Counted from the first letter of the stretch, positions 35,043 through 64,000 are shown. The stretch: DNA of 64,000 nucleotides from Candidatus Berkelbacteria bacterium (GCA_043751595.1 JAYUZR010000035.1:2534-66533), one strand, 5' to 3'. A program made the numbers and translations. Notes: generated from the letters alone by a model not told the origin.

Positions 35043-35117
<75 letters not shown>

Positions 35118-35131
35118 CCTAGTACACTTTT

Positions 35132-35353: not shown

Positions 35354-35359
35354 ATTCAC

Positions 35360-35445: not shown

Positions 35446-35446
35446 T

Positions 35447-35524: not shown

Positions 35525-35556
35525 AAAGAAAATAGGCTAAATGCAAGGAAAACAAG

Positions 35557-35630
35557 CCGGGGTAGCTCAGTGGTAGAGCAGGGGCCTGAAGAGCCTCGTG
35601 TCGACAGTTCGATTCTGTCCCTCGGCACCA
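35557..35630 (+). tRNA. tRNA-Phe (GAA), CCA encoded
   Basis: GCCGGGGTAGCTCAGTGGTAGAGC...anticodon loop CTGAAGA...CCTCGGC-A-CCA. Confidence 0.85.
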
Positions 35631-35686
35631 TTTTCTTCTGGGAAAAGTTTTGGTATAGTCCGAGCCAGATTCGTTAAGAATCGTTC

Positions 35687-35762
35687 GGGCTCTTAGCTCA
35701 GTTGGTAGAGCGCTTCGTTTACACCGAAGATGTCAGAGGTTCGAGTCCTCTAGGGCCCACCA
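35687..35762 (+). tRNA. tRNA-Val (TAC), CCA encoded
   Basis: GGGCTCTTAGCTCAGTTGGTAGAGC...anticodon loop TTTACAC...AGGGCCC-A-CCA. Confidence 0.85.
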
Positions 35763-41035: not shown

Positions 41036-41083
41036 CCAGATCAAGCCTTGCTTAGGCCTAACAAATTGGGTATAGCAGAGTGT

Positions 41084-44734: not shown

Positions 44735-44811
44735 TGGTCGGCTTGATGGGACTTGAACCCATGACCGGCGCCTTATAAGAGCGCTGCTCTAACCAGCTGA
44801 GCTACAAGCCG
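44735..44811 (-). tRNA. tRNA-Ile with a UAU (TAT) anticodon, CCA encoded
   Basis: Reverse complement is CGGCTTG-TA-GCTC-AGCTGGTTA-GAGC-A-GCGCT-CTTATAA-GGCGC-CGGTC-ATGGG-TTCAAGT-CCCAT-CAAGCCG-A-CCA. U33 and A37 flank the TAT anticodon. Confidence 0.75.
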
Positions 44812-48481: not shown

Positions 48482-49435
48482 ATGCAGCTTCCATTACGCC
48501 TGCTCACCCCTGGTGAGCAGGTTGTGTTAATTTCCCACATCAACCCCGATGGCGACGCAGTAGGTTCTTTGCTCGCCCTTGCTTTGGTCCTTAAAAACCT
48601 AGGGTGGAAGGAAGTTATCCCGGTACTGAGTGATGGCGTGCCAAGTAGCTTTAACTACCTCCCGCTTAGTAAGGCGGTTATCCGAGAAGTCCCGCTCCAC
48701 GCTGATTACTGCATACTTCTTGATGCCAACGAAACAAGTCGATCTGGCCAGCATGATGCTCTGCAGCAGTACCTGGCTACCGACCGTCTTATCGTGATTG
48801 ATCATCACCCGCCTACGCAGCTTATCAATCGAGCAGTTGATCACCTTCACCAGGTAGATATTTCCTCAACCTGCGAAATACTGTACACCGCCTTTCGCGC
48901 ATCTAAGATTAAGATTACTGCAGAGATTGCCACCTGCCTCCTCACTGGCATCTTTACTGATACTGGTGGATACCATCACAGCAACACTCGCAATGAGACC
49001 CTTGAAGCCTGTGGCTTTTTGATGCGCTGTGGGGGGCGACTTGATCAAGTAGTAAGTAACTTAGTACAAGGTAAAACCTTAAGTAGTTTACGCCTCCTCG
49101 GGATTGCCCTTGAGCGAGTCACTATTACCTCCAAGGGGCGCTGTGCAGTAACCGCGCTTACTCAAGCAGACATCGAGGGTACCCAGGCTACAGCTGCTGA
49201 TATTAGCGGTATCGTGGGCCATCTCGCCATGCTGCCAGGGGTTAAGTGCGCACTCCTCATTAGTGAGTTTACACCGGGGATTGTACGCGGCTCCCTACGT
49301 ACCACAGAAGGCTCTACAGCCGACGTTGAGCGTCTAGCTAAGTTACTAGGAGGTGGAGGCCATAAGAAGGCGGCTGGATTCTCTGTGTATGGCCATATTG
49401 AAGTAAGGGGGCAAACCTGGAAGGTGGTTGCCTAA
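48482..49435 (+). CDS. DHH/DHHA1 phosphoesterase (second NrnA-like paralog)
   Basis: ISHINPDGDAVGS, VIDHHPPTQ and GGGGHKKAAGF. Confidence 0.6.
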   Translation: MQLPLRLLTPGEQVVLISHINPDGDAVGSLLALALVLKNLGWKEVIPVLSDGVPSSFNYLPLSKAVIREVPLHADYCILLDANETSRSGQHDALQQYLATDRLIVIDHHPPTQLINRAVDHLHQVDISSTCEILYTAFRASKIKITAEIATCLLTGIFTDTGGYHHSNTRNETLEACGFLMRCGGRLDQVVSNLVQGKTLSSLRLLGIALERVTITSKGRCAVTALTQADIEGTQATAADISGIVGHLAMLPGVKCALLISEFTPGIVRGSLRTTEGSTADVERLAKLLGGGGHKKAAGFSVYGHIEVRGQTWKVVA

Positions 49436-49478: not shown

Positions 49479-49564
49479 GCCACGGTGGTGGAACGGTTAT
49501 ACACGGCGGACTTAAAATCCGCTGAGCCTAGCTCTTGCGGGTTCGAATCCCGCCCGTGGTACCA
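49479..49564 (+). tRNA. tRNA-Leu (TAA), class II, CCA encoded
   Basis: GCCACGG...anticodon loop CTTAAAA, variable arm GAGCctaGCTC, T-loop TTCGAAT, CCGTGGT-A-CCA with a G1-U72 wobble. Confidence 0.8.
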
Positions 49565-49592
49565 GCCAAGTCCTTTGGGACTTGGCTTTTTT
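49565..49592 (+). terminator. Rho-independent terminator after tRNA-Leu
   Basis: GCCAAGTCC-tttg-GGACTTGGC followed by TTTTTT. Confidence 0.65.
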
Positions 49593-49670: not shown

Positions 49671-50102
49671 ATGGAAGATAAAATCATCGGGCCACTCAGC
49701 CCGATCCAGTTTGGTATCGTCACCATTGGGGGCTTAGCCGCTTTTGTTATCTTTAGTTCAGATGGCCTGCCCAGTCCCATTAACAAAATAATCGGATTTT
49801 TTCTGGCCATGATCACCCTAGCCCTAGCAATGGGTAAGTTTAACGATCAACCACTCTACTCGTTCACTAAGTACATTATCCTTTTTGTTACCTCACCCAA
49901 GACCAGGGTTTGGAAAAAGAATGGGGGAATGGAGCCCGTTCTTGTTAAGCCTACACAGCGCTCTGGAGCAGCTGATCAAGCCAAGGTGATCAAGCACGTA
50001 CGCAAAAACGATATTGCCCAACTTGCCACTATTCTTGATAGCCGCGGTACGGTAGGGAAGAGCCCCACCATCGCAACCAGTAGAGGGACGACAAAATCAT
50101 GA
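49671..50102 (+). CDS. VirB3-like small membrane protein (PrgI/ConD-like) of a Gram-positive-type T4SS
   Basis: Two TM helices (PIQFGIVTIGGLAAFVIF; IIGFFLAMITLALAM). Lies immediately upstream of, and overlaps (ATGA), the VirB4 N-domain gene. The longer ORF start overlaps tRNA-Leu and was rejected. Confidence 0.4.
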   Translation: MEDKIIGPLSPIQFGIVTIGGLAAFVIFSSDGLPSPINKIIGFFLAMITLALAMGKFNDQPLYSFTKYIILFVTSPKTRVWKKNGGMEPVLVKPTQRSGAADQAKVIKHVRKNDIAQLATILDSRGTVGKSPTIATSRGTTKS

Positions 50103-50887
50103 GCGCAGCTGGAGCCTCCACCCAAGACCACCTACCTGTCGCAGGTATCCAGGATGGGGTAGTAATCATGAACGACACTTCAGTACGCGCCATCTTACGG
50201 GTGCAACCGATTAACTTTGAACTAAAGTCAGAGGCCGAGCAAAACGCCATCATCTACAGCTACCAATCCTTCCTCAACTCACTCGATTTCCCGGTTGAGA
50301 TTGTTATTAATTCTAAGAAGCTCGATCTTGAGCGCTACCTACGCAAACTGGAAGAGCAAAAGAAAAATCTTTCAAGCGATCTTCTTAGAATCCAGATCGA
50401 AGATTACGTAAACTTTGTCAGGCGCCTTATCACGATTGCCAACATTATGGCTAAGCGCTTCTACGTAGTAGTAAGTTACGCTGCAGTTACAGGCGCCAAG
50501 GCATCGAGTGGATTCTCTCTTAGTACGGTACTAGGTATTGGTGGCGGAAATACTCAGGCAACTCTCTATCAAGACCAGTTTGATCGCTACAAGGCAGAGC
50601 TAGGCAATAGGGCTAACATTGTTTCTGCCGGGCTTACTCGCGTAGGTTTAAGGGTTGAACCCCTTACCACTCAAGAGATTATCGAGCTCCTCTATGGTGC
50701 TTATAACCCCGACATTGCCCAAGAAGAGCGGCTTACTGATGTGTCTGCCCTTAGTGCTGGTATCGTATCATCCGAGAACGTTGCACCACCCTTGGAACAA
50801 GCTGCAGAAGTTCCTCCAGTAGCCGTGCCAGAGGCTGCCCCTGCTCAACCAACCGCCAATCCACCACAACAGCCACCAGCTGTATAG
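50099..50887 (+). CDS. VirB4/TraC-like N-terminal domain, ending at an in-frame TAG 6 nt before the ATPase ORF
   Basis: VAGIQDGVVIMNDTSVRAILRVQPINFELKSEAEQNAIIYSYQSFLNSL matches the CagE/TrbE/VirB4 N-domain. It ends in a Pro-rich linker, and the next ORF is in the same frame. Confidence 0.55.
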   Translation: MSAAGASTQDHLPVAGIQDGVVIMNDTSVRAILRVQPINFELKSEAEQNAIIYSYQSFLNSLDFPVEIVINSKKLDLERYLRKLEEQKKNLSSDLLRIQIEDYVNFVRRLITIANIMAKRFYVVVSYAAVTGAKASSGFSLSTVLGIGGGNTQATLYQDQFDRYKAELGNRANIVSAGLTRVGLRVEPLTTQEIIELLYGAYNPDIAQEERLTDVSALSAGIVSSENVAPPLEQAAEVPPVAVPEAAPAQPTANPPQQPPAV

Positions 50888-50893: not shown

Positions 50894-52693
50894 ATGCGCC
50901 TACTCTCCTTTCTTCACCCCGATTCCAGCGATTCTAACGCGCAGGCTGCCGAGCAGGCGGCTATGGCTACGTATCAGCAGGGACTCACTACCACGCGTGA
51001 TATTATTGCCCCCTCTGATTTCATTGTAACTTCCAACTATCTTCAGCTTGGAAGCTACTATGTGCGCACCCTGTTTGTGTACACCTACCCAAGGTTCTTA
51101 AACACCAACTGGCTCTCCCCAATCATCAACTACGATCTTACGATGGATATTGGGATGTATATTCATCCTCAGAATGTCCAGGAGGTAATGGGATCACTAC
51201 GCCGTAAGCTTTCTCAGCTAGAATCTACCCGCCAGATCAACGAAGAAAAGGGACAAGTTCGTGATCCAGAAATTGATCTCGCCATCAGCAACATTGATCA
51301 ACTCCGCGATAGCCTGGCCCAGGGGACTAATCGCCTATTCCAATACGGCCTCTACTTCACTATTTACGCAAAAAGCGTAGACGAGTTATCAACCTTATCA
51401 AAGCAGATCTCATCTACCCTTGGTGGAATGCTTATCTATACCAAAGAGGCACTTGTACAGATGGAACAGGGTTTTACCGCCACTCTCCCACTGGCTAAAG
51501 ACGAGCTTAACATTCAGAGAAACCTGGACACTGGCTCACTCTCTACCACCTTCCCATTCACAACAGCCGAGCTGACCTCCGACGAAGGAATCTTGTACGG
51601 CATTAACCGCCACAACGACTCATTAATTCTGTTCGATCGGTTCAATCTTAATAACGCAAACTCGGTAGTATTCGCTACGTCTGGTGCAGGAAAATCCTAC
51701 TTTATTAAGCTAGAGATTCTGCGTTACATGATGCTTGGCACCGATGTAATCGTTATCGACCCAGAGAACGAATACAAAGCCTTAGTAGACGCAGTAGGTG
51801 GAAGCTACCTAGAAATTAGCCTTAATGCACCCAAGCGCATTAATCCTTTCGATCTTCCGACCACGGTGCATCCAGAAGATGCAAACGAAGATGTCCTTAG
51901 AAGCAATATCACCAGCCTCCACGGCCTGATCAGACTAATGGCTGGGGGATTAACCCCGGAAGAAGATTCAGTCCTGGATAAAGCCCTGTACGAGGTATAC
52001 GCCCTTAAAGATATTACCTCCGATCCTTCTACCTATAAGAATCCACCGCCACTTCTTACTGATCTTATTTCCGTACTGGGTAATCTGCGTGGTGCCGATG
52101 GCCTTGTTCTTCGCCTAGGTAAGTTTGTCGATGGAAGTTATGCCGGTCTCTTTAACCAACCGACCAACTTTAGCCTGAGCGGCGGACTTGTTGTATTCTC
52201 GGTTCGTGATCTAGAAGAAGCACTTCGCCCTATCGCCATCTTCACCATTCTTAACTACATCTGGAATGTAGTGCGCTCCGATCTTAAGCGACGCATCATG
52301 GTAGTAGATGAGGCCTGGTGGATGATGCAATACGAAGACTCTGCCCGCTTCTTGTACGGACTAGCTAAGCGCGCCCGTAAGTACTTCTTGGGTCTTACTA
52401 TTATTTCTCAGGACGTTGAAGACTTCCTCTCAAATAAATACGGAAAGGCGGTAGTGTCTAACTCGGCCATGCAGATCCTCCTAAAGCAATCTACTTCTTC
52501 GATTGAATCAATTGCGGCGGTGTTTAATCTGACCGAGCAAGAAAAGTATTTGCTGATTAACGCTGGAGTGGGCGAAGGCCTTTTCTTTGCCGGGCTGAAC
52601 CATGTAGCCATTAAGGTTACCGCCTCGTATACCGAAGATCAGATTATGACTACTGATCCGAAGCAATTACTCGCAATGCGTGGCTCGCTTTAG
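50894..52693 (+). CDS. VirB4/TrbE/CagE-like T4SS ATPase domain
   Basis: Walker A ATSGAGKSYF, Walker B IMVVDEAWWMM, and the conserved ISQDVEDFL and NSAMQILLKQ blocks. Confidence 0.75.
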   Translation: MRLLSFLHPDSSDSNAQAAEQAAMATYQQGLTTTRDIIAPSDFIVTSNYLQLGSYYVRTLFVYTYPRFLNTNWLSPIINYDLTMDIGMYIHPQNVQEVMGSLRRKLSQLESTRQINEEKGQVRDPEIDLAISNIDQLRDSLAQGTNRLFQYGLYFTIYAKSVDELSTLSKQISSTLGGMLIYTKEALVQMEQGFTATLPLAKDELNIQRNLDTGSLSTTFPFTTAELTSDEGILYGINRHNDSLILFDRFNLNNANSVVFATSGAGKSYFIKLEILRYMMLGTDVIVIDPENEYKALVDAVGGSYLEISLNAPKRINPFDLPTTVHPEDANEDVLRSNITSLHGLIRLMAGGLTPEEDSVLDKALYEVYALKDITSDPSTYKNPPPLLTDLISVLGNLRGADGLVLRLGKFVDGSYAGLFNQPTNFSLSGGLVVFSVRDLEEALRPIAIFTILNYIWNVVRSDLKRRIMVVDEAWWMMQYEDSARFLYGLAKRARKYFLGLTIISQDVEDFLSNKYGKAVVSNSAMQILLKQSTSSIESIAAVFNLTEQEKYLLINAGVGEGLFFAGLNHVAIKVTASYTEDQIMTTDPKQLLAMRGSL

Positions 52694-52712: not shown

Positions 52713-54662
52713 ATGCAAGAAAACGATCCGCTCAACTTGCAAGAGCCGATCAACCCTGATCAGCAGGGTTTTGATACTGAAGATTATCTCTCTCAACAAA
52801 ACCAAACCGTCTCAGACGGTGAGTTAAATGAGGGACTCGGCCAAGAATATATTCAACCGGCCTCTGGTATAGGTACGCAGCCCCATAAGCCTGGTAATGT
52901 GAGTGTAAATCCAGCTAATCAACCCAGGCGCTTTGGCTTATTTGGGGCACGCAAGACAAGTGATAAGGCGGATGCTCAAAAGCCGGATTCCAAGAGTAAA
53001 GATGAAAAAGTAGAGGGTCCCAAGACCGATCTTCCGGGAGCTAAGTCTGCAACGCAAGATAAAAAGAAAGAAGAAAAAGAAGGTGGGAGCGCAGTAGGAG
53101 CAGCCGGGCGTACTGCCGCAGAGATGAAAAAGATTGCTGCAACCTCCGGTGGTAACGGATGGGTGGCTGCAGGGCAATACCTAAATAAGCTTCGCACCAG
53201 CTCCCAGTTTAGAAAGGATCAGCTTAAGACAATGGGTACGGTGCGCAAAGTGCAGCTTGTGCTCCTTTGCCTTGCCTTAGTTATTCCACTTTTTGTTGGG
53301 ATGCTCTTCTTTGGTCTAGGCGGTGTAAGCGGGGACAATGTAGGGAGATTGGCGGATACCACTGGAACGGTTGGAACTGCTTCTGGGGATGGGACTTTTA
53401 ATGCAGGTGGAATATTTACTTGTGAACTACGAAGCTTCCTGGATACTATCGCCTCTCACGAAACAGGTGAGACAATGACACGCGAGCATTATGGCTGGTC
53501 TCAAAATGGCCACAAACAATTTGATGCCCTGGATCCCAAATGGGATACCGCGTTTCCACCAGGAGAATCTAGTGGAAGAAACATCGGCAGATATCAGATT
53601 GATCCTGATCCAGGAAAAGATGGAGATATCCAAGATGCCCAAGCGGGCCTAGATAAAGCCAAGATCCCCTTTAAAATCACTGGGTACAGTGCTAAGCAAC
53701 AGGATTATGTAGCATTGGGTAGGTGGTACTTTGGTACGTACAGAAAAACAAGAGGAGGAGTCAATATGCGCACTAATTATGGCCAATATGCGTCGCCTGA
53801 GTATCCTCAAAAACTACTTGAAAATGGCGAGGAGGGATTCAAAACTGCGGTCGTTATCGCATCTACAGACTTCGCTAGCACACCTGTAGTTATTCCCGCT
53901 ATCCATGCCGATCCGGGGCAGTCCCATGTAACATTTGAGGCATACTTTGCCTTCTATCAAAAGCGCCTTCAGTACTGCGGAACCCAGTCGCAAGGGGGAG
54001 CCGTCTCCAAGCCAGGTACCACCATACTTGCAGATGTTGCCGGAGCACACAGAATCCCGAATGTCCCGGGCGTTCAGCAGGCAGACAAGAGTAAGAGTAC
54101 CCGCCCAGATAAAACCGCAGGTGGTGGCCAGTGCGGAACAGCATCAACCCTAATGGTAACGCTATTCTATAAGCCAAGCTTCACCGATGGAGCCAAATTA
54201 GATACTGGCAATACAGCAGGCAGCAGCAGACTGAGCGTTAAGCCATATCAGTTTATCCCTAACCTTATTAACTATTTAAATGAAAAGTCAGGGGTTACCT
54301 GGACAATGATTGAGCAAAAACAAAAAACCAAAGCAGAGCTTCTCTCGATTATGACAAAGTCGATCGATGGCGGTGATCCCATGATCGTATACACCGGAGC
54401 GATTATTTACCCTATGGCACACATCTATGTTGTAATGGGCTATGACGCAACAAGTTTTTATGTAAATAATCCGCACCCTGGTGGGGTAGATATGGCCACA
54501 AATAAAGCTCACAATGGTGCTGCGCCAACTATCGATACCGTACTGAGTGCAGGTGCCAAAGACGCAAACCCCGTAGAATACGCAAAGTACAACTACCGTA
54601 ATGCAGAGCATGGTAGCCATAATAATAATTTCCTTATTGTCCGCTCTAAGTACGTAAAGTAA
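52713..54662 (+). CDS. T4SS-associated cell-wall hydrolase (CwlT/VirB1-like): cytoplasmic K/E-rich N-terminus, TM, lysozyme-like domain, C-terminal CHAP-like Cys/His peptidase
   Basis: TM helix VQLVLLCLALVIPLFVGMLFFGL. Muramidase-like region IASHETGETMTREHYGW...GRYQIDP. CHAP-like region GGGQCGTASTLMV and MAHIYVVMGYD. Confidence 0.45.
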   Translation: MQENDPLNLQEPINPDQQGFDTEDYLSQQNQTVSDGELNEGLGQEYIQPASGIGTQPHKPGNVSVNPANQPRRFGLFGARKTSDKADAQKPDSKSKDEKVEGPKTDLPGAKSATQDKKKEEKEGGSAVGAAGRTAAEMKKIAATSGGNGWVAAGQYLNKLRTSSQFRKDQLKTMGTVRKVQLVLLCLALVIPLFVGMLFFGLGGVSGDNVGRLADTTGTVGTASGDGTFNAGGIFTCELRSFLDTIASHETGETMTREHYGWSQNGHKQFDALDPKWDTAFPPGESSGRNIGRYQIDPDPGKDGDIQDAQAGLDKAKIPFKITGYSAKQQDYVALGRWYFGTYRKTRGGVNMRTNYGQYASPEYPQKLLENGEEGFKTAVVIASTDFASTPVVIPAIHADPGQSHVTFEAYFAFYQKRLQYCGTQSQGGAVSKPGTTILADVAGAHRIPNVPGVQQADKSKSTRPDKTAGGGQCGTASTLMVTLFYKPSFTDGAKLDTGNTAGSSRLSVKPYQFIPNLINYLNEKSGVTWTMIEQKQKTKAELLSIMTKSIDGGDPMIVYTGAIIYPMAHIYVVMGYDATSFYVNNPHPGGVDMATNKAHNGAAPTIDTVLSAGAKDANPVEYAKYNYRNAEHGSHNNNFLIVRSKYVK

Positions 54663-54964
54663 TGCCCTCTCCAACCCCTTGTCCTAACCCAGGAGTCCTT
54701 ACCAACTGCTCTCAGAGCACGCTACAGGGGTATGCTCAGGCTATTATCAACGATAATATCGGATACATTTTTACGATTGCTTTAATCATGATCATCTACT
54801 CAGGGGTTGAGTATATGTACTCCGGTTTCTCTCCTGATAAACAAAAATCTGCCAAGCAGCGCATCATTGGTATTATTACCGGACTTGTATTCTTCCTCTT
54901 GCTTCAGGTAATCCTCAATCAGATTACCGATATTAAGGGCCTTCCCACCGTTAGAAGTCATTAA
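54662..54964 (+). CDS. T4SS pilin-like protein (VirB2/TrbC-type), paralog 8, inside the T4SS-like operon
   Basis: Core IIYSGVEYMYSGFSPDKQKSAKQRIIGIITGLVFFLLL. Its ATG overlaps the upstream stop. Confidence 0.5.
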   Translation: MPSPTPCPNPGVLTNCSQSTLQGYAQAIINDNIGYIFTIALIMIIYSGVEYMYSGFSPDKQKSAKQRIIGIITGLVFFLLLQVILNQITDIKGLPTVRSH

Positions 54965-54966: not shown

Positions 54967-56304
54967 ATGGCCGAATTACCTGAGCAGGCACCAGTTCCGG
55001 CTATCCCACCTCCCCATCCTTTTAGCACACCACCATCGTTTGCTCAGGCGCCTAGGCAGGGTATCCGAGGAAGGCTTGATTCTATTCTCGAGCGTGTCCC
55101 GCGCCAGACCTGGCTTGGCCTTGGGGTACTAGCCGGGGTTCTCATTATTGGGGCCATTATCCTTCTCGCTTATGCAGCAAACAGGGGAGGAATCTTAGTA
55201 AAATCAGCCGCAGATCAGCCGCTTACTATCCAACTAAACGGCGCCACTACCAAACCTACCAAGCAAGGTACTGATTACTTCTTGCGCACGTATACCGGCC
55301 GATACAATGTAGTAGTTAAGCGAGATGGCTACGAGCCATATTCCCAAGATATTACCGTGGGTAGCAAACAGACAGTAGTTATTCGCCCCATCTTTAGCCT
55401 TTTGCCACCCGAAGGAAGTGCCGACCCAATAGTTTCGGTAGACCACGTACGGGCAGATCCCGCCAACAATAAGCTCTTCTTTGTGGGAGATAGGAAAAGT
55501 GGTCTCTACGAACTACCTCTGGCAACCCGCATTCCTCGCAAAATTAGTACCAAGGCAATGCCTGGTATCTATGATATTGAGTGGTCTAAAGATCCTAATG
55601 TAGCCATTATTCTTGCTAACCAGGGGACATTCCTGCAAGAGATTCCAACCTTCGATTTTCAGAATCAGCTTACCGCCCAGATCTCTGGACCAGAGGTAGA
55701 AAGCGCTGCTTGGGATCCTAATGACCAGAGTAGATTAGCGGTAAGTATTACTCGCACCAATGGCGAACACTCACTTATTTTTACCGATAAAAAGCTAGTA
55801 AAGCTGGACCGCAAGGCCGATCTTACCGGCATCGAGAATCCGCACCTTACCTGGAGCGCCGATTCGCGGGTAATCCTTTTGGTTAGTCGCAGCAAGGACC
55901 CTAACCAGAACAATATCTGGAAGTACACCACAGCAGATGGAACCCTGAGCCAAGTAACCACCGATGGTGCGTGGGGTGGGGTAGAGATTTCTCCCAATGG
56001 CGATAAAGTGATCGCCGAACAGGATGGCAAACTTTACGCGCTTTCACTTAGTGACGGTAGTAAAACCGATATAAAGATTGTTGGTAACACCCGCCTTATT
56101 GCTTGGCGCGATAACGATAGTTTCTTTGTGCCAGACGTGGGCCGCAACAGGTTACTTTTAGCAAATCTTGATGGCACCAGAATCGAACTTTCCTTCAGCT
56201 TTACCAACCCGCACGAGATTCAAGGTCTATTGTACTTCCCAGAGCAGAAAATGATTGTTTTCTATACTTCCAGGGCCTTATACACCCTGTCGGTGGGTGT
56301 ATAA
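54967..56304 (+). CDS. Membrane-anchored TolB-like beta-propeller (PD40/WD40-like repeat) protein
   Basis: Pro-rich cytoplasmic N-terminus, a TM (LGLGVLAGVLIIGAIILLAY), then repeats with SPNGDKV, SADSRVI and DGT motifs. Confidence 0.45.
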   Translation: MAELPEQAPVPAIPPPHPFSTPPSFAQAPRQGIRGRLDSILERVPRQTWLGLGVLAGVLIIGAIILLAYAANRGGILVKSAADQPLTIQLNGATTKPTKQGTDYFLRTYTGRYNVVVKRDGYEPYSQDITVGSKQTVVIRPIFSLLPPEGSADPIVSVDHVRADPANNKLFFVGDRKSGLYELPLATRIPRKISTKAMPGIYDIEWSKDPNVAIILANQGTFLQEIPTFDFQNQLTAQISGPEVESAAWDPNDQSRLAVSITRTNGEHSLIFTDKKLVKLDRKADLTGIENPHLTWSADSRVILLVSRSKDPNQNNIWKYTTADGTLSQVTTDGAWGGVEISPNGDKVIAEQDGKLYALSLSDGSKTDIKIVGNTRLIAWRDNDSFFVPDVGRNRLLLANLDGTRIELSFSFTNPHEIQGLLYFPEQKMIVFYTSRALYTLSVGV

Positions 56305-56311: not shown

Positions 56312-57355
56312 ATGGCTGACTCCAGAAATACCACCATCCTCCTGACTGGAGCCATTGCTACCGTTTTTTTGATGAGCTTCCTGGCATCAGCAAGTATTGC
56401 TGGCACCAGAATCGGCTCCAGTAGCTCGCAGAGTGACGGCCCCAACCAGTTGGGTGCCACCAACACCAGCGCAGCTGTCCCTACCGATCCCCGCATCGCC
56501 AGCCTTACTCAGGCAATCACTCGCTTGGCAGACCCTAAAGCAACAGCTGCCGATAAAGCCTCTTCACTTACCTCAACCTCCAATAGCCTACTCGAGTTAA
56601 AAAAAGGTCTTGCTACTAATACAAAACTGACTCAAGAAAAAAAGACTGAGTACGGCACTAAAATTGATGAAGCCCTCACCCTGGTAAACCAGGCAAGTGC
56701 AGCTGCCAAGGCTGGTAATGGGGGAGCACAGTCTGCTGAGATCATGAAAAAGCTTCTCGCCAAGCTTGATGAACTCCCCGATAAAGACCGCAAGGCAATT
56801 TATGGAATTGAAACTGGTGGTGCCGCTGCGGCAGTAGCCTTTGCTATTGCGGCCGTAAATGCCAACGGCAATGGAGCCGCTGGTGGTATTTACCCTTACT
56901 CACACACTCGCCCTATCAACCCAACAGCATCCAACCCAGCCCAACGCGGCTTCGATTGCTCTGGCTTTGTGGGTTGGGTATTAAGCTCAGTCGGAGTTAT
57001 CACCCTCACCAATGGCCAGGTAGATACTCAGTTACTCTACGATAAAGCGGAGGCTGGCAAAGAGATAACTTCAGTACGTAAGGGCAAGCTCAGCTATTCT
57101 GATGCTCAGAATATGTACAAGTCTGGAGAGCTTAAACCTGGTGATATTCTCTTGAGTGGAATGTATAAGGGGCAGCGGGTTGAAGGAGTTTCTCACGTTG
57201 TACTCTTTTTGGGTGAAGTTGATGGAAAATTAATGGTGGCTGAATCTCAAGACCGAGACGGCAAACACGGCGTTCACTTTACTACCCTAGAAACACGCCT
57301 AAGTGGCGGAAGAGCTGGTGTAAGCCTACTAGCTAGACCCAACTATGCTGGATAA
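56312..57355 (+). CDS. NlpC/P60 family cell-wall peptidase, membrane-anchored
   Basis: TM near the N-terminus. Catalytic GFDCSGFVGWV (Cys) and VSHVVLFLG (His). Confidence 0.65.
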   Translation: MADSRNTTILLTGAIATVFLMSFLASASIAGTRIGSSSSQSDGPNQLGATNTSAAVPTDPRIASLTQAITRLADPKATAADKASSLTSTSNSLLELKKGLATNTKLTQEKKTEYGTKIDEALTLVNQASAAAKAGNGGAQSAEIMKKLLAKLDELPDKDRKAIYGIETGGAAAAVAFAIAAVNANGNGAAGGIYPYSHTRPINPTASNPAQRGFDCSGFVGWVLSSVGVITLTNGQVDTQLLYDKAEAGKEITSVRKGKLSYSDAQNMYKSGELKPGDILLSGMYKGQRVEGVSHVVLFLGEVDGKLMVAESQDRDGKHGVHFTTLETRLSGGRAGVSLLARPNYAG

Positions 57356-60300
57356 CCTGCGTAGTCGCCTAGTCGGGTTATCGTTAGCTGCACTTCTTAT
57401 TCAGCCAATTTTCCCATTGGTGGCGCAGGCAGCAGATGAGCAGACCGCAGCACAAACCATTCGTACCTGTTCAGAGCAAGTTGCAGACTACTACGAACGT
57501 GGCATTGATCCCGAGGGACTAGGGGAAGCTGTAGATACTGTGGCCTTTGAAGCTAATGATCCAGATAATCCACCAACCCCCGAGGAGTTGGCCGAGTACG
57601 AAGACTTCCAGAACATTACCGAGTTTGATAACGGTGAGGGAGTTAACGTCTTCAACCAAATTATCGACCTAAACGTTGTAAAAAATACCCCTGGTGCCCT
57701 CCCTGAAACCATCTCCCTCATCACCAGCGACGAATACGTAGCCAGCGTCATTGCCCTCTATGGTGACAATATTACTCACTACAAAACCAGTTTCTACGAT
57801 CTTATTGTGGTCTGTAAGGCATCGAGCGCGGTAATTGATGAAAGAATCTTCGACCCTTACGTTCCGATCACTCCAGACTTCTTAAGCCTGAGCGAGGCCA
57901 TCCAGCTTTCTTCTGCCAAGATTGCCTTTGCCCGAGCAGAGGATAAATACTACCTCCTAGGAGAACACTGCGAAGGTGGCCTTATTAGTACGCCAGCTAG
58001 CCAGTGGACCGCCGACACCAACCCCTGCCCAGGTTTTAAGCCAGAGGACGATATTATCCGAACCGGAAAATCACTAGGTAGATGGGATGCGCCCAAGGTC
58101 GATCCGCGTGTTCTCTATACCCTTCTCTACTTAGTTACTCCAACCGAAGAAGGTGGCGCTGGTCGTGAGTACATTAAAGTAGCTCGCTTAGTAGACCCCA
58201 TTTCAAGCAATATTCTTACCAACGCCGTTGCCAGCCCTTCGCCAGAAGCTAGTCCTTCTCCATCTCCTTCCGCCAGCCCTTCGCCATCCGCCTCGCCCAG
58301 CGACGAGCTAAAGTTTTCTAAAAGTAGTCAAGATGATACCGCCAAACAACCCGATCTTACTGGGTATCAAATTAATCCGGACGATGAACCTCACTTACCT
58401 ACCAAGGTAGCCAGCGCGGTTTCTATTAGTGAGATTGATAAAATCCGCTCGACTATTAAGATCACCAAGTATATTGGTATTTTTAGAAAGAAGTCGCGCG
58501 AGTATAACTACTACGCCCCATACCCAGTAAAGGTAGCCTGGCAAACTGAGGCTGGCTCGGCTGCTCAATCTATCCCAACCTTTGCCCAACCCCAGCTCAA
58601 CCTTTTGGCTAATGGCCGCTTCTTGGCGAACCAAGGCATCGTTGAGATGCTCAACCAGAACGGACTTGGCGATCTTAAGCTTGATGCCAATAGTGTAGAA
58701 ATTAATTCCTTTGAGGACGTTGGTCGCTTGGTGGGAACGTCGCTAATCGAGCAATTACTAGGCACCCCTAATAACTCACTCAAGGGCTGGGATCTTACCT
58801 CTACCCTCGAGCAAATTGGTCGTGCTTACGCTGAGCAGCAAATCGGCCTTACCGCCGGGTCATTAGCAGAGGGTGACGATTTCCAGTCACTGGTTCGAAA
58901 TATTGGCCGTAGAACGATCGAGAAAAACTTAAACCTACCAGAACGCTCCTTGGCCGATGCCGGTGGGGATTCTTCGGTGTTACTTGAGAACCTTGGTAAG
59001 CGCTGGCTAGAGACCGAAGTACTTAAAATTAGCCCCGGATCCCTCGACGGTACTTCCGAGTTTCCAACCACCAAGGTCTCAGACCTCTTAGCCAGGGTGG
59101 GCGAGGGAAGAATAGAGGCGGTTATGAAGCTCCCGCGCCAGAGTATGCGCAAGAAGATCTACAGCGATAGTGATCCACAAAAAAGCTTACGCGATAGCAG
59201 TGTTAAGGCTCGCCTTACCTTCCCAGATGTTAAAGGGAGTCCTAAAGACGAAGATTATCTAACCGCCGATTATCTTAACTCGCTCCTAAGCCTTTCCTAC
59301 GTTGAATACAACGGTAGCGGGGCAAATATGTACGGCTTCACCAAAAATGACCTGCGTGACGCGGTTATTAACTTCTTTAAGGCTGGCAGCAACCAGAATG
59401 CCGTTGATACTTTTAAGCAGATTGTAGGAAGTAGAGTACTCGAGACATCGCTTGGAAGCTTCCAGTTGGGTGGAACGAGCACTCCAGTAACGAAGGAAAA
59501 GAAGCGTACGGTTGATATTACCAATTTAGGGCTTTTCACTTATGCAAAGGAGAAGGATGATAAGGGTAATCCTATCGCTTACGATTCCAACACCAAGTTC
59601 TATCCGTATTCTTGGTATCAAAAAATCCCATTTGGCGATCACGATACATTGGGCCAAGGAACACTTTGCGGCGCACTAGGGGAAGAGCCTTCAAACGATA
59701 GACTTCAGTTTGAAACCCCTGGAGGTGACAAATATACCGTGAAGTGTAATGAGCGAGATGAAGTAGCAAGTGATACCGCAGATACCAGCTTCTTTAAAGA
59801 TTTGCAGGAGTATCTTCTTTCGCCAGATCTTGTTACTCAAACCGAGTTTAGACCAGATGAAAGCATTCATAAGGCACCAGTATATGCCGACTACCTTAAG
59901 GCAACTCCCGATAACGAATCCTTCGCCAAGCGCAGGTACAACCACGACTACGTTGCCTACATTAATGACCCAAGGCTCAATGTTGCCGTACCTCGCAACG
60001 GAGTAACTGGCGCAGATAGAGCAAGTCTTAGCGCCAAGCCAGTTGCCAGCGCAAGCGATCTCAAGCCAGACGATGCCGCTGGCCTCGCGGCACTTTCTGC
60101 TATCGCACCAATTTCTAGTGCACGAGCCTTTATTAATCAGACTCCTGAGTTAGCTAATAGCGCGCCACTCCAGGCAACGCTTAATATGATTAGCGCACTC
60201 TATAGTACGCAGCAGTCGGTTGTGGTTAATGGGAAAACCGTTCCTCTCTTTGATCTCACCCCCGTAATGAATCAAGCAGGGGAAGAGCTACAGTATTCGC

Positions 60301-63300
60301 TTGCACTTCGCCTTAACGCCCTTCGTGCCCACCCAAGCTATAACGGAAACAAAGAGCAGTACCTTAGGGAGTATAATGATATTTCTATACCTACCGCCAC
60401 TTCCAGCAACCCGTATAAGGGCTGGGATTTCCTATTAAGCGATCTTAAGGGCCAAGTAGCCTGCTTCCAGCGAAGTGGAGTTTGGCAGTATTCAGATGCC
60501 GCCCAAGGATTTGGCTGCGTTGCTGGTACAACTAAAAAGGTTATTAGCGCCGATGCCTCAACCGCATCCAACCAGGTAATCACCTACATCGATCGCCTTC
60601 GCGAGCAGGTTACCAGTCTTTCCGATGCCCTAAGTTTTATGCTGGGAACTGGCGGCAACTGCCAGGGTGATGATGCCTCGAGTGAAGAGCTTTGTGGTCA
60701 GAGTGGAGCCAGTCAGGCAGTGGAGATTTACGGCTCCCTATACGAAACCGATGATAATGGAAGGATCGATACCGCTAAAATTGCTTACTCCAAAGACCCA
60801 CTGCGTGATTTGTTTATGCCTGTCATCAAAAAGCAGAATGGCAAAGCTAAAGGAGTAGACCGTGGAGCTGTAGTACAAATTAACGGGGCTGTTACCAACG
60901 GAAGTATCAACACTGCACTCGTGGCGAGCACCCAAAAATCGTACTGGAAACAAATTGGCCTCCAGGTAGCGAGTAAGCAATTTACCAATGGTAATAGCCA
61001 GCGCCAGACCATGGCCACCACCCTACAAACAGGGTTTGGCGACTTTACCGCTGCCCTCAAGAACCTCGGTGCCTTCTCGATGGATGATAGCAAGTTGAAG
61101 GCAGCCGGCATGACTATTGAAGACTTTGCTCGTATCTTCCAGCTTGGATTAGAGGACGATGTCTTTGAGCGATACGGCCGAGAAGAATTGCTGCGGGCCT
61201 TATGGACCAAGACCGGCGCCACGGCAAGTATTAAAAAATCGACTGAGTATCAGAGCTTCATGAAAGAGCTGAACGACGTTGCGCAAGATGTCGGCTTCTA
61301 TCGAACCCGAATTGTCCGACTGACTGCGAATGATGGCGTCGTGGCGCAACTATCAGATACCCTCAACACCTTAAGCACCAAACTTAAGGCCGATGGCAAA
61401 ATGACTGATGCCGAGTTTGATGCAATGAAGGCCGAGTACAACCAATCTCAGGCTGTTGCCGCTATTCAGCGAAGTGTCGATCCATCCCAGCGAGGTGCCC
61501 TCTCGCAACTAGAAGCAACTGCTAAGGGTTTGCAAACCGCTGGTCGCGATCACGAGCGTCCACTTCGTCGCATCTATCAACAGCTCCTCACTATTAAGAC
61601 TCGCTTCCCAACTGTGGGCACCGAGCCAAGCTATGGTGGATTGATGACAAAAGCAGAAGATCTTGCCGAAGAGGGGGTCCAGCTTGTTCAGGAAATTGCC
61701 GCCGGCAAGCAACTACCTCGTCCGGTATACGACGGAACCCTAAGTGGTGGAATTGATAAAAAAGCTGGTGGCCTAGCCGAGAAGAGTTATTCCAATAACC
61801 AGTGCTTCCCTCAGGGCAACCTGATTCAAGTATTAATGCGGGATAAGAAGCTTCTTGATACCACCAGCATTGATCAAACCGGATCTTTCAAGGCGCAACT
61901 TGCCAGCTTTGCCATCTACACCGGAGCCTGCCGGCTCGATACCGCCCTTGGCATGCCAAAGGGGAGTGTCTTTGGTTGGTATAGTCTGGGCAAAAAAGCC
62001 TTCCCACCCAAGAAAGATCTTGCCGCCAAGCCACCAATTGATCCAAACCCAACGCTCACCAACCCAGATGGAAGCCCAGCTCCTGGTGTACCTAGTTGGA
62101 AGGCTGGTGAAATGGGAACAGAAAATCTTGCCCTTGCAGCTGGTATTGGTGATGCCATCGCCAACAACGACACCACGGTTAGCTACACCAATATTCACAC
62201 CCAAAGCGCGACCAAGATTAAGGCACTAATGGACCGTGGGAAAAATGTCTTAATTGCTTCAGTAACCCTGCAACTCGCCAAGCAGTTCCCAGGAATTGAA
62301 GCTGCTCTGCGCAAAGCCAACCTTAGCCTGGACGATGTATCTCACATATTGCAGGGAGACCTGCGGCCACTGGCTCTTAAGTTGGGTGGGCCTGTTCTTG
62401 ATAAAGCGCTCGATCTCCCCAAGGGCACTGGATATGCCTTAATGTTCCCAACCTGCCGATCCGAAACCGGGGCCACAACTGCCTGTATCAACGACCCTAA
62501 CCACCCTGGAACTGACCCTGATAATATCCGCCTCCAGACCATGGCTCGGGTTGGCTTTAAAAAGATTGGGGCCCAGATTCCCGATTTCCCGGCAGACTTC
62601 GATCTACTTAGCGGAGGTAACCTAGCCGCTTCGTGGGGTACTTCTCGCATTAGTAGTGTCCTCGGCCTTGAGAGTAATAGCTTTGGCGGAGTACTTGCCA
62701 GCAAGACCAGCCTTACCACCTCACAGCTCAATACTATTTCTAGCGTCGTATCAGGCAACTGTCCAAAATCACTCGACGCAACCAGCCAGCCAAACCAATG
62801 TTCGGCCGAGGCTACTGCCAGAATTGCACAGGCGTTTAGGGTAGAAAATCCTAAAAAGTCGAATTACATCGAGTTAAGTAAGAAGCTTACAGCAAGCCTC
62901 AAGAACACCACTCCTCTAGCAAAGGGAGCGTTAGCGACTATTACTGATAGTGACCCCGTAAACCAAGCACTCGACTGGTACCTCTACCATACCAGCCTTG
63001 GTATGTTCCAAACCCAACTTGCCCCTGATCTTATTACCAAAGAAGATACCATTGCCGCAGGTAAAAATATCGCCAGCGCAGCCTACTATTATTACCTATA
63101 CGAACCCTACGTAGCACCTGCTCAAAAAGGTCTTATTTCCAGGCTCTGGGATGCCGTGGCCGATCCAAGCCTGCATGTAGGAATTGCCGATCCTAAAGAG
63201 AGAATCCGAGCTGCCCGCCGTATTATTGTTCAAAGCTTTTACTCATCCGATACCTTTAGAGACATCACCCCCGATCAACTAGATCAGGCAACACCACCAG

Positions 63301-64000
63301 GTGGAGGTAAGCCAACCCTGACGGCCTTTGTAAATGAGAATACCGCATCCGCAACGGGTGTAGTACTTGCTTTGCGCAACCAAGTAAAGCAGACCACTAC
63401 CGCCCTTCGCTTAAGTGATAGCGACAAAGAACTAAAAGACGGCTCTGCTGTATTCTACAAGTTCCTTCGCTCTGAAATTGACGGAGAGAAAATTTCCACC
63501 AACATTGGTCAGATTGACGCCGTTGGTGGAATTATCACCAATCTTTTCGATAAATACATTGGTGGAAACGATGCACCCACTTGGCTTAAAGAGGGGAATG
63601 ATATCTTTAAAACATTCTCTAAGGGGGTTTGTGGAAAAGATATTAATATTGGCCAGTTTATCTCAAGCTCCATGGTAAATGGCGGCGATGGCTCCTGCTT
63701 CAGTAATAATATTGGCACCGCCAATATGAGCAATGTGCTCTATGGATCTGGATTTACCCAGTTTAGAGACGTTCTCTTTGATAAGTTTCTTGCCCGCACC
63801 TTTAGCGCACAGCTAGAGCAGGAGATAGGACTTGATAAAGGAACCTTCCGCAGTATTGTCACCACTCCTTCTAATGGGCGACAGATCTTACTTAGTCAGG
63901 GTGTACGCCACTTTGCCGACCAGCTCTTCGGCAGAAACACTAGTAGCACCTGCTACATCACCGAGGGAGATAGTACTTCTTGTGCAGAATCAAAGTTACG
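57345..64000 (+). CDS. Giant secreted or surface protein (more than 2218 aa inside the window, 3' end beyond it); last gene seen in the T4SS-like operon
   Basis: ATG at 57345 overlaps the NlpC/P60 stop (ATGCTGGATAA). Signal peptide MLDNLRSRLVGLSLAALLIQPIFPLVAQA. An SPSPEASPSPSPSASPSPSASPS linker around aa 290. The frame was checked codon by codon at 57345-57760, 58200, 60000, 62001 and 63900 with no stop. No competing ORF of 60 aa or more appears on the plus strand in the 6.6 kb. Confidence 0.65.
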   Translation, partial: MLDNLRSRLVGLSLAALLIQPIFPLVAQAADEQTAAQTIRTCSEQVADYYERGIDPEGLGEAVDTVAFEANDPDNPPTPEELAEYEDFQNITEFDNGEGVNVFNQIIDLNVVKNTPGALPETISLITSDEYVASVIALYGDNITHYKTSFYDLIVVCKASSAVIDERIFDPYVPITPDFLSLSEAIQLSSAKIAFARAEDKYYLLGEHCEGGLISTPASQWTADTNPCPGFKPEDDIIRTGKSLGRWDAPKVDPRVLYTLLYLVTPTEEGGAGREYIKVARLVDPISSNILTNAVASPSPEASPSPSPSASPSPSASPSDELKFSKSSQDDTAKQPDLTGYQINPDDEPHLPTKVASAVSISEIDKIRSTIKITKYIGIFRKKSREYNYYAPYPVKVAWQTEAGSAAQSIPTFAQPQLNLLANGRFLANQGIVEMLNQNGLGDLKLDANSVEINSFEDVGRLVGTSLIEQLLGTPNNSLKGWDLTSTLEQIGRAYAEQQIGLTAGSLAEGDDFQSLVRNIGRRTIEKNLNLPERSLADAGGDSSVLLENLGKRWLETEVLKISPGSLDGTSEFPTTKVSDLLARVGEGRIEAVMKLPRQSMRKKIYSDSDPQKSLRDSSVKARLTFPDVKGSPKDEDYLTADYLNSLLSLSYVEYNGSGANMYGFTKNDLRDAVINFFKAGSNQNAVDTFKQIVGSRVLETSLGSFQLGGTSTPVTKEKKRTVDITNLGLFTYAKEKDDKGNPIAYDSNTKFYPYSWYQKIPFGDHDTLGQGTLCGALGEEPSNDRLQFETPGGDKYTVKCNERDEVASDTADTSFFKDLQEYLLSPDLVTQTEFRPDESIHKAPVYADYLKATPDNESFAKRRYNHDYVAYINDPRLNVAVPRNGVTGADRASLSAKPVASASDLKPDDAAGLAALSAIAPISSARAFINQTPELANSAPLQATLNMISALYSTQQSVVVNGKTVPLFDLTPVMNQAGEELQYSLALRLNALRAHPSYNGNKEQYLREYNDISIPTATSSNPYKGWDFLLSDLKGQVACFQRSGVWQYSDAAQGFGCVAGTTKKVISADASTASNQVITYIDRLREQVTSLSDALSFMLGTGGNCQGDDASSEELCGQSGASQAVEIYGSLYETDDNGRIDTAKIAYSKDPLRDLFMPVIKKQNGKAKGVDRGAVVQINGAVTNGSINTALVASTQKSYWKQIGLQVASKQFTNGNSQRQTMATTLQTGFGDFTAALKNLGAFSMDDSKLKAAGMTIEDFARIFQLGLEDDVFERYGREELLRALWTKTGATASIKKSTEYQSFMKELNDVAQDVGFYRTRIVRLTANDGVVAQLSDTLNTLSTKLKADGKMTDAEFDAMKAEYNQSQAVAAIQRSVDPSQRGALSQLEATAKGLQTAGRDHERPLRRIYQQLLTIKTRFPTVGTEPSYGGLMTKAEDLAEEGVQLVQEIAAGKQLPRPVYDGTLSGGIDKKAGGLAEKSYSNNQCFPQGNLIQVLMRDKKLLDTTSIDQTGSFKAQLASFAIYTGACRLDTALGMPKGSVFGWYSLGKKAFPPKKDLAAKPPIDPNPTLTNPDGSPAPGVPSWKAGEMGTENLALAAGIGDAIANNDTTVSYTNIHTQSATKIKALMDRGKNVLIASVTLQLAKQFPGIEAALRKANLSLDDVSHILQGDLRPLALKLGGPVLDKALDLPKGTGYALMFPTCRSETGATTACINDPNHPGTDPDNIRLQTMARVGFKKIGAQIPDFPADFDLLSGGNLAASWGTSRISSVLGLESNSFGGVLASKTSLTTSQLNTISSVVSGNCPKSLDATSQPNQCSAEATARIAQAFRVENPKKSNYIELSKKLTASLKNTTPLAKGALATITDSDPVNQALDWYLYHTSLGMFQTQLAPDLITKEDTIAAGKNIASAAYYYYLYEPYVAPAQKGLISRLWDAVADPSLHVGIADPKERIRAARRIIVQSFYSSDTFRDITPDQLDQATPPGGGKPTLTAFVNENTASATGVVLALRNQVKQTTTALRLSDSDKELKDGSAVFYKFLRSEIDGEKISTNIGQIDAVGGIITNLFDKYIGGNDAPTWLKEGNDIFKTFSKGVCGKDINIGQFISSSMVNGGDGSCFSNNIGTANMSNVLYGSGFTQFRDVLFDKFLARTFSAQLEQEIGLDKGTFRSIVTTPSNGRQILLSQGVRHFADQLFGRNTSSTCYITEGDSTSCAESKL

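Follow-up and report, generated by a model that had tools for sequence, protein, structure and literature searches.

A family of giant exported proteins encoded in the T4SS-like operon of Patescibacteria

Introduction

The type IV secretion systems (T4SSs) of Patescibacteria, which are ultrasmall parasitic bacteria, are related to monoderm conjugation systems, lack a relaxase, are often located near dnaA and possess unusual VirB2-like pilins (PMC12102498). The components recorded in inventories published so far are VirB3, VirB4, TrsD, VirB6, pilins and hydrolases; no adhesin is reported, and genes that match no profile stay unassigned (PMC12102498). Here, we analyse a stretch of 64,000 nucleotides (nt) from a Candidatus Berkelbacteria bacterium (GCA_043751595.1, JAYUZR010000035.1:2534-66533; the whole stretch is referred to as the window), in which a T4SS-like operon runs into a very long reading frame that reaches the end of the window. 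This frame constitutes the 5' part of a gene for a large, predicted exported protein (hereafter the giant), a member of a family of hypothetical proteins whose genes adjoin T4SS genes, the replication origin, or both, in every related locus that we examined.

In Southlakia epibionticum the T4SS (cluster SEML1_0004-0019) is essential for epibiotic growth (PMC10633639), and the gene placed directly after VirB4 (SEML1_0007) encodes an essential hypothetical protein of 1,113 amino acids (aa) with a C-terminal Hedgehog/DD-peptidase domain, as assigned by structure-based annotation (PMC10633639, Tables S1 and S2). The role of the T4SS-like system of Saccharibacteria was described in a recent perspective as 'completely unknown' (PMC11665869). 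Cryo-electron tomography (cryo-ET) of another patescibacterium revealed an unexplained lance/tube-like structure that crosses the envelope towards the host (PMC11880426), and membrane-localised giants of 1,392-4,163 aa were proposed to serve host recognition in Vampirococcus lugosii (PMC8080830). We found no description of the giant family in the literature cited here.

Results

A single gene of a large Patescibacterial family

The region 57345-64000 (+ strand) translates into 2218 codons with zero stops, while all the other open reading frames (ORFs) that overlap it, on either strand, reach at most 145 aa. At 49% G+C, an open frame of 6.6 kb without interruption lies far beyond chance. Its ATG (57345) sits 11 nt inside the gene of an NlpC/P60 endopeptidase, the TAA of which occupies positions 57353-57355. 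The original prediction, made from the bare sequence, had proposed both this single frame and its overlap with the NlpC/P60 stop, and the full translation, in which no stop interrupts 57345..64000, bears them out. Residue 2218 of the window protein aligns collinearly with approximately residue 2200 of relatives that are 2,917-3,039 aa long; since these relatives extend past that point, the gene is cut by the end of the window and, as projected from the alignment, some 700-800 residues lie beyond it.

A word-indexed search recovered 13 relatives (1,788-3,039 aa), which have no Pfam domains and are called 'hypothetical protein' where they are named at all. We then used HMMER with a profile (A1) in which aa 185-715 of the window protein stand as the first (reference) sequence, so that the window's own match is circular, and obtained 257 cluster representatives at E <= 1e-3 (154 of them at E <= 1e-30), none of which had a Pfam or NCBIfam match. 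Of the 150 listed matches, 144 are absent from A1 itself. Almost all matches are 1,400-3,300 aa long and invariably carry the core near the N-terminus; the full-length close relatives measure 2,900-3,040 aa, and length classes of about 2,300 and 2,900 aa can be recognised. A scan of GTDB species-representative genomes with a four-sequence alignment placed members of the window's subclade in genomes titled 'uncultured Candidatus Saccharibacteria bacterium' and 'Patescibacteria group bacterium'. Taken together, these searches show a family that is large, uniformly giant and, as far as its sequences tell, confined to Patescibacteria. They also supply the hundreds of homologues for which the original prediction had recommended a search, and agree with its suggestion of a host-associated or epibiotic lineage.

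One member (HSI21364.1 / MEZ0286892.1; L012, GCA_041287945.1, JBGGMR010000044.1) bears the label 'Verrucomicrobiae bacterium'. It is probably mis-binned, because its 11-kb contig shows a window-like Patescibacterial T4SS operon order.

No relatives were found on plasmids, in phages (tblastn) or among IMG/VR contigs (scan), so that a mobile-element or phage origin of the giant finds no support. The window itself is chromosomal, as it encodes PNPase, RecA, FtsK, ClpB, YchF, S1 and nine tRNAs.

Conserved linkage to the T4SS-like operon

In the window the order is tRNA-Leu, PrgI/VirB3, TraC/TrsD, VirB4, C39_2, pilin, PEGA/propeller, NlpC/P60 and the giant, with the following coordinates:

49671..50102, + strand: PrgI/VirB3-like protein (Pfam PrgI, E = 5.3e-7)
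50099..50887, + strand: TraC-like/TrsD-like protein, 262 aa (weak match to Pfam TraC_F_IV; PF26593 TraC-like at the homologous position in related loci)
50894..52693, + strand: VirB4-type ATPase, 599 aa (Pfam P-loop_TraG, E = 2.2e-28; AAA_10, DUF87, CagE_TrbE_VirB)
52713..54662, + strand: membrane-anchored Peptidase_C39_2-like protein, 649 aa (Pfam, E = 1.5e-6; conserved in related loci)
54662..54964, + strand: VirB2-like T4SS pilin, 100 aa (Pfam T4SS_pilin, E = 2.3e-7)
54967..56304, + strand: membrane-anchored PEGA/beta-propeller-like protein, 445 aa (conserved operon member)
56312..57355, + strand: NlpC/P60 peptidoglycan endopeptidase (Pfam NLPC_P60, E = 2.1e-6)
57345..64000, + strand: giant ORF, the 5' part (about 75%) of a gene whose predicted product measures about 2,900-3,000 aa

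The PEGA match (E = 4.8e-4, 20.4 bits) falls short of its cut-off (20.8 bits), and the propeller match is likewise sub-threshold; a gene of this kind occupies the same position in L001, L003, L005, L007, L009 and L012. The likely start of the NlpC/P60 gene is ATG 56312 (the longest ORF begins at 56255).

We compared this arrangement with ten related loci (L001, L003, L004, L005 and L007-L012), leaving out L006 (the second GTDB match, a 9-kb contig):

L001 (giant P0002): window gene set with a small change of order, followed by a T2SSE/VirB11-like ATPase, yidC, rnpA and dnaA
L003 (giant P0001): window gene set, with T2SSE inside the operon
L004 (giant P0003): partial operon upstream, then T2SSE, yidC and dnaA
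L005 (giant of 2,917 aa): agrees with L001 in the sizes and order of its ORFs (judged by ORFs, without a Pfam scan), with a 506-aa ORF at the T2SSE position
L007 (giant P0011): VirB4, propeller, Amidase_3, C39_2, giant, dciA ... dnaA
L008 (giant P0012): PrgI, TraC-like, VirB4, SLT/M23 hydrolase, a 344-aa gene, giant, dciA, recF, dnaN, dnaA
L009 (giant P0006): window order, then T2SSE
L010 (giant P0010): giant adjoins the T4SS pilin and the origin region
L011 (giant P0008): giant adjoins rpmH, rnpA and yidC
L012 (giant P0004): pilin-sized gene, propeller, a 385-aa gene, giant

The full order, in which the giant follows a hydrolase at the 3' end of a PrgI-TrsD-VirB4 operon, was found in the window and in L001, L003, L005, L007, L008 and L009, while L004 and L012 show part of it. 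The type of the upstream hydrolase varies (NlpC/P60, C39_2, Amidase_3 or SLT/M23), and one is always there where the flank suffices. Moreover, the start of the giant overlaps or abuts the upstream gene in eight related loci, with an identical 11-nt overlap in L007. The coupling to a T4SS-like operon that had been proposed for the window is thus strongly conserved across related loci, and of all the evidence this linkage speaks most strongly for the giant being a functional part of the T4SS-like system.

Several further observations concern the operon. The longest PrgI ORF (from TTG 49428) crosses both a tRNA-Leu(taa) gene (49479-49564) and a terminator-like hairpin (49564-49587) with its T-run, and the real start must therefore lie downstream (first ATG 49671), so that the operon probably begins right after tRNA-Leu. 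The C39_2-like protein has a low-complexity N-terminus rich in Lys, Gln and Gly (~180 residues), one transmembrane helix and its peptidase domain at aa 450-588, which is preceded by a Pfam-less middle of ~250 residues that could hide another wall-hydrolase domain. An ATPase of the T2SSE family (~505 aa, VirB11/PilB-like) is encoded directly after the giant in L001 (18787-20304), L004 (13395-14912) and L009 (17006-18526), in all three by Pfam annotation, and inside the operon in L003 (4803-6323); the 506-aa ORF of L005 (18395-19915) occupies the corresponding position, and the gene is absent from the branch in which dciA follows the giant (L007, L008, L010). A 2025 survey reported VirB11 only for one MPF-T-type genome (PMC12102498), and in the window's branch the ATPase may be a component that has been overlooked.

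Wherever the origin is visible (L001, L004, L007, L008, L010), the VirB4-giant operon is transcribed towards dnaA/rnpA, and the + strand of the window has a negative GC skew over almost its entire length; a gene of ~9 kb in a reportedly essential operon therefore appears to be oriented head-on to replication. Two DHH/DHHA1 paralogues (NrnA-like nanoRNase or phosphoesterase) are located at 41048-42250 (+) and 48482-49435 (+), the second of which directly precedes the T4SS operon, an arrangement shared by L001 and L009 (S1, ~155-aa gene, DHH, PrgI).

Architecture of the protein

The family architecture is shown by the alignments to be conserved and three-part, with an N-terminal core, a variable middle and a predicted C-terminal hairpin module. 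Along the window's portion of the protein we recognised:

57345..57431, + strand: Sec-type signal peptide, aa 1-29 (MLDNLRSRLVGLSLAALLIQPIFPLVAQA, followed by ADE; predicted cleavage between AQA and AD)
57897..59489, + strand: family-wide conserved N-terminal core, aa 185-715 (BLAST mapping; mean pLDDT 73.7 in the AlphaFold2 model)
58083..58580, + strand: alpha/beta module, aa 247-412, split by a linker (motifs D-x-R...YLVTP...GGAG[H/R], ...AWQ)
58230..58301, + strand: low-complexity linker rich in SP (aa 296-319) that interrupts the alpha/beta module
58731..59168, + strand: five helix-loop repeats of ~30 aa, aa 463-608 (consensus IGRxxlEqxLgLPxGSL)
59490..63998, + strand: variable middle, aa 716-2218 (8 of the 10 cysteine pairs, no known domain)

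The signal peptide, called by eye and from hydropathy, without a dedicated predictor, has a basic n-region, a hydrophobic core (Kyte-Doolittle, KD, 2.13) and an AQA/A cleavage motif, and an N-terminal hydrophobic segment is present in 106 of the 129 long relatives. Within the alpha/beta module, D253 is kept in 147, R255 in 145 and Q400 in all of the 157 members, while G271 is found in 151, the other six being alignment gaps. A low-confidence stretch of the model (~aa 288-337, pLDDT 33-45, i.e. <50) surrounds the SP-rich linker. The 20 cysteines of the window protein form 10 close pairs (209/228, 775/801, 1040/1058, 1106/1117, 1487/1529, 1704/1714, 1806/1819, 2096/2118, 2203/2213 and the wider 42/157), and 12 of them are invariant in an alignment with the three closest full-length proteins (P0001-P0003). 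Hence, the classical signal peptide (with its n-, h- and c-regions), the short SP-repeat linker and the many paired cysteines of the original prediction were all recovered, while internal repeats, which were not obvious to it by eye, do exist. Although neither DNA-level tandem repeats nor large internal duplications were detected in the giant (Tandem Repeats Finder, self-BLAST), an iterated hidden Markov model (HMM) found the helix-loop repeat in five copies in the window protein, in 1-5 copies per relative and in none of the shuffled sequences. AlphaFold models these repeats as evenly spaced helices (pLDDT 80-94). An LGLPxGS-like loop motif recurs at aa 1535, 1689, 1773 and 2161 of the window protein and, family-wide, occurs 398 times over the whole protein length against 10 times in a shuffle (~40-fold), an enrichment that is indicative only, as the motif was defined after the sequences had been viewed. 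In the variable middle, blocks at aa ~1120-1800 and ~1990-2200 are conserved in nearer relatives.

Two side observations touch on this part of the protein. In both AlphaFold models the segment ISEID...AWQ (aa 360-400, nt ~58422-58544) forms an unusually long two-stranded beta-hairpin (strands of ~12-18 residues); as long hairpins often join oligomeric sheets or barrels, it is a possibility that the modelled N-terminal module oligomerises. Elsewhere in the window (17799-19496, - strand) a 565-aa protein joins a DsbD/CcdA-type membrane domain to AhpC/thioredoxin-like domains, which looks like an extracytoplasmic thiol-redox system and fits the paired cysteines of the giant.

The C-terminal module lies past the end of the window and is known from relatives only. 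It measures ~475 aa, ends at the C-terminus in 126 of 129 long members (it was also seen in the four closest full-length proteins, P0001, P0002, P0003 and that of L005), and contains 2-3 hydrophobic helices, arranged as a hairpin, and a cysteine-containing tail (...ADGYYP...IPQIFTYG...). A transmembrane block falls within the last 450 residues in 112 of the 129 long relatives (median of 148 residues after it), whereas the 2218 residues of the window show no transmembrane segment after the signal peptide. The giant is thus probably tethered to the membrane rather than released, and of the 'giant secreted protein' originally proposed the size and the export stand, while free release is unlikely. 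The check for C-terminal sorting signals that had been proposed came out negative in the relatives: LPXTG was found in the last 80 aa of none of the 129 long ones. Scans of the giant and its relatives (Pfam, NCBIfam) revealed neither S-layer homology nor an adhesin domain. More generally, the whole giant and its relatives have no meaningful match in Pfam, NCBIfam or PHROGs.

A hydrolase-like motif, degenerate in the window's subclade

Most members carry, in the alpha/beta module, the sequence N-[ILV]-S-[AS]-H-x-x-G-Q-A-[VI]-D-I-S-E-[IV]-D, and the pattern S.H..G.[AG].D (SxHxxG[QE]AxD) is present in 92 of the 157. We read SxHxxGxAxD as the signature that marks the first zinc site in the LAS group (VanY/M15 peptidases and hedgehog N-domains). 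When 28 compact domains were scanned singly against Pfam, only sub-threshold matches were obtained, the best being DUF5715 (E = 0.0023, 5 members) and VanY (E = 0.0046, 4 members; 16.6 bits against a 25-bit cut-off), followed by Peptidase_M15_4 (0.037, 4 members), HH_signal (0.049), Peptidase_M15_2 and Extensin-like_C; the window segment itself had no match. Against PDB sequences the domain profile gave 14 weak matches, 12 of which are Sonic/Indian hedgehog N-domains (E about 1.3-1.7) that align on S-x-H-x-x-G-R-A-V-D-I, while the A1 core profile gave a single chance match (E = 0.58). These weak matches converge on related families, and no single one is significant.

M15 enzymes have a second motif that supplies the catalytic Glu and the third zinc-ligand His (ExxH / HxH). 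In the giant family the only conserved downstream motif is [KV]-V-A-W-Q-[TS], with a Gln invariant in 157/157 and no conserved His or Glu. Given the sub-threshold matches and the missing M15 residues, we therefore record a resemblance to LAS peptidases at the level of the motif, and not membership.

In the window copy the motif has a degenerate counterpart, and we traced the fate of the putative metal ligands through the window's subclade (the 13 proteins of ~2,900-3,300 aa closest to the window protein) and the other 144 members:

58392..58439, + strand: degenerate counterpart of SxHxxGQAxD-ISEID, HLPTKVASAVSISEID, in which Ser360 replaces the Asp of the family
AxD Asp (column 360): Asp in 138/157 of the family, 3/13 of the window's subclade and 135/144 of the others; Ser360 in the window
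GGAGH His (column 274): His in 86/157 of the family, Arg in 13/13 of the subclade, His in 86/144 of the others; Arg274 in the window
SxH His (column 353): His in at least 53/157 of the family, no His in the subclade, His in 53/144 of the others; Thr353 in the window

In HLPTKVASAVSISEID the His is out of register and the first zinc-site motif is lacking, while the rest of the alpha/beta module stays conserved in the subclade. Judged by these columns, the putative metal ligands have disappeared from the window's subclade; supposing that the module ever had catalytic activity, it most likely has none in the window's lineage.

Other features of the window

ARAGORN called a tRNA-Ile with the anticodon TAT (UAU) at 44735-44811 (- strand). 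As AUA is read in most bacteria by a CAU tRNA that carries lysidine, this gene may reflect an unusual AUA-decoding strategy in the lineage. Five further tRNA genes (Gly-GCC, Cys-GCA, Leu-CAG, Phe-GAA and Val-TAC) are packed within ~800 nt (34946-35762, + strand). The ORF 40175-41035 (+ strand) is located beside the ClpB and DHH genes; its longest frame contains, at aa 100-121, a type IV pilin-like motif for prokaryotic N-terminal methylation, and it may encode a pilin or pseudopilin with a later start.

Discussion

We reason that the giant is a surface-exposed scaffold of the T4SS, tethered to the producer's own membrane and acting at the cell wall together with the co-translated hydrolases, and that its N-terminal module is a wall-binding or regulatory descendant of a metal peptidase; we give this reading a probability of roughly 55%. 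The giant is encoded by a conserved last or next-to-last gene of the chromosomal, origin-proximal T4SS-like operon of Patescibacteria, whose order in the window's branch continues past it with a VirB11-like ATPase. Following cleavage of the signal peptide, the predicted topology comprises a disulfide-stabilised ectodomain of ~2,700 residues, a hairpin in the cell's own membrane and an external tail. The ectodomain, with its helix-loop repeats and disulfides, could serve as an envelope/host-interface scaffold for the T4SS, and at the site of contact between the epibiont and a cell wall it could position or regulate the hydrolases (NlpC/P60, C39-like) as well as the pilus. Its membrane-distal N-terminal module may derive from, or mimic, a LAS-type (VanY/hedgehog-like) metal-binding peptidoglycan peptidase, and the ligand-less module of the window's subclade would bind or regulate rather than cut, in the manner in which degenerate LytM factors act on amidases.

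Several points weigh against this reading. The link to LAS peptidases is not established: no HMM match reaches a curated threshold, two fold searches gave no support, the members lack the third His and the catalytic Glu that M15 enzymes usually have downstream of the motif, and the invariant Gln of AWQ presumably stands where the ExxH of M15 would be expected. In addition, the ~1,500 residues of the middle have no assignable fold, the topology is read from hydropathy and cysteine pairs only, and the physical association with the T4SS from gene order only.

A different explanation, unlikely in our view though still deserving some weight, is that the giant is a host-attachment adhesin co-expressed with the T4SS but not part of it, comparable to the PrgB-type aggregation substances known from Gram-positive conjugation or to the fibrous surface giants of Vampirococcus. 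Such a role would suit an exported, disulfide-rich, membrane-tethered protein whose middle is variable and whose length falls into classes (about 2,300 and 2,900 aa); moreover, monoderm T4SSs rely on adhesins, none of which has been found in Patescibacteria (PMC12102498), and the giant membrane proteins of a predator from the candidate phyla radiation (CPR) were proposed to mediate attachment (PMC8080830). However, no Ig, FN3, VCBS or PKD-type domain and no beta-rich tandem repeats were found, the gene invariably adjoins wall hydrolases, and the membrane-distal N-terminus is the most conserved part and bears the hydrolase-like motif, while host-specific binding would predict a variable tip. 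The idea of host attachment, already put forward in the original prediction, consequently stands at a lower weight, as conserved ends around a variable middle point elsewhere. Its sortase-anchored (PrgB-like) variant was rejected, given the absence of LPXTG from all 129 relatives and of adhesin domains.

It is improbable, by comparison with a scaffold at the cell wall, that the giant substitutes functionally for VirB6, with its C-terminal membrane module forming the translocon where the operon has no recognisable VirB6. Giant VirB6 paralogues do exist in Rickettsiales, and only the N-terminal core is more widely conserved than the C-terminal module. No polytopic VirB6-like ORF is present in the 57 kb upstream in the window (where the search turned up only the DsbD-like protein and FtsK) or in the flanks of L001, L004, L005, L008 and L009; a VirB6 could, however, be encoded elsewhere in these genomes. 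Most of the protein mass is extracytoplasmic, and 2-3 hydrophobic helices compare poorly with the at least 5 of VirB6/TrbL/PrgH. As there is also no similarity to TrbL or PrgH at any threshold, the candidate that the giant is a VirB6 homologue was discarded.

That the giant acts as an effector or toxin, secreted or contact-dependent, and reaches the host through the T4SS seems very improbable to us. Its gene adjoins secretion machinery, and the Saccharibacteria T4SS was speculated to deliver effectors (PMC11665869), yet a Sec signal peptide combined with a conserved C-terminal membrane hairpin fits such a role badly, the scans revealed no toxin or enzyme domain beyond the hydrolase-like motif, and in relatives the gene is not followed by a small immunity-like one (the next gene being the T2SSE ATPase, dciA, a pilin or rpmH). 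Both termini are, furthermore, conserved across the 257 clusters, which is atypical for polymorphic toxins; the toxin/effector candidate was rejected, and the contact-dependent effector of the original prediction is left without support. Lastly, the notion that there is no real gene, only a chance open frame or an assembly chimera, has nothing in its favour beyond the absence of database annotation and is already refuted by the homology data (2218 stop-free codons, an architecture collinear in homologues down to 23-28% identity, conserved cysteine pairs, and a conserved operon position and start/stop coupling).

A bolder idea, which we consider a long shot, is that the giant is the structural element that turns a conjugation-type T4SS into the host-penetrating 'lance' or feeding tube visualised by cryo-ET (PMC11880426). 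If this were true, the protein would form an extended helical-repeat shaft or molecular ruler, whose N-terminal, wall-peptidase-derived tip would engage or open the host peptidoglycan together with the co-translated hydrolases; the hairpin would insert in a membrane, possibly the host's, and complete the conduit, and the existence of discrete length classes (about 2,300 and 2,900 aa) would correspond to how thick the spanned envelopes are.

Whichever way it acts, the giant family makes a promising candidate for a component still missing from the secretion machine, which is essential in S. epibionticum as the only species tested, being a single unannotated, exported and predicted membrane-tethered family of at least 257 sequence clusters that ends the VirB4 operon. 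It offers a large surface-accessible target for deletion, truncation and tagging in tractable Saccharibacteria and a candidate for the cryo-ET densities at the host interface, while the clades that keep and those that lose the putative metal ligands provide a natural comparison. A new family model would end the 'hypothetical protein' annotation of these genes.

Comparison with known systems

Close to the giant stand the VirB1-like hydrolases of monoderm conjugation, such as PrgK (pCF10), TraG (pIP501), CwlT (ICEBs1) and TcpG (pCW3), of which PrgK combines LytM (LAS-type), SLT and CHAP domains. Both are encoded in a VirB4 operon, exported and membrane-anchored, and carry or accompany peptidoglycan-cleaving modules; indeed, the same enzymatic repertoire (NlpC/P60, C39-like, SLT/M23, Amidase_3) is encoded directly upstream of the giant. 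The giant is, however, 3-4 times larger, has a C-terminal hairpin anchor in place of an N-terminal helix, and lacks SLT and CHAP domains, its sole LAS feature being one at the level of a motif that is degenerate in the window copy. With PrgB and the LPXTG adhesins it shares its large size, its surface location and its co-encoding with a monoderm-type T4SS, and it could fill the slot of the 'missing adhesin', but it has neither LPXTG nor adhesin domains and is predicted to be rich in helical repeats rather than beta-rich.

EnvC, NlpD and the hedgehog N-domains are LAS-type modules that, having lost catalysis, bind or activate other hydrolases or ligands. The window's subclade appears analogous, as it has likewise lost the putative ligands in an otherwise conserved module; on the other hand, the membership of the giant in the LAS group is unproven, and even the motif-intact members lack the third His and the Glu. 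A looser analogy may be drawn with phage tape-measure/ejection proteins (e.g., Pb2 of T5), which have muralytic domains and hydrophobic hairpins: both are very long and helix-rich, carry a wall-hydrolase-like module and a hairpin near the C-terminus, and would act at the envelope of another cell. In contrast to them, the giant is chromosomal, has a Sec signal, belongs to a T4SS operon and shows no similarity to PHROG or phage records. The giants of the CPR epibiont Vampirococcus lugosii differ in carrying WD40, PKD, integrin and fibronectin domains and in not being linked to a T4SS operon.

The comparison with SEML1_0007, drawn from its published description and not from its sequence, shows a protein of under half the giant's length, with its LAS domain at the C-terminus (aa 951-1105), whereas the hydrolase-like motif of the giant is N-terminal. 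Both are nonetheless large hypothetical proteins encoded in a T4SS cluster near dnaA, beside lysozyme/cysteine-peptidase and PEGA genes.

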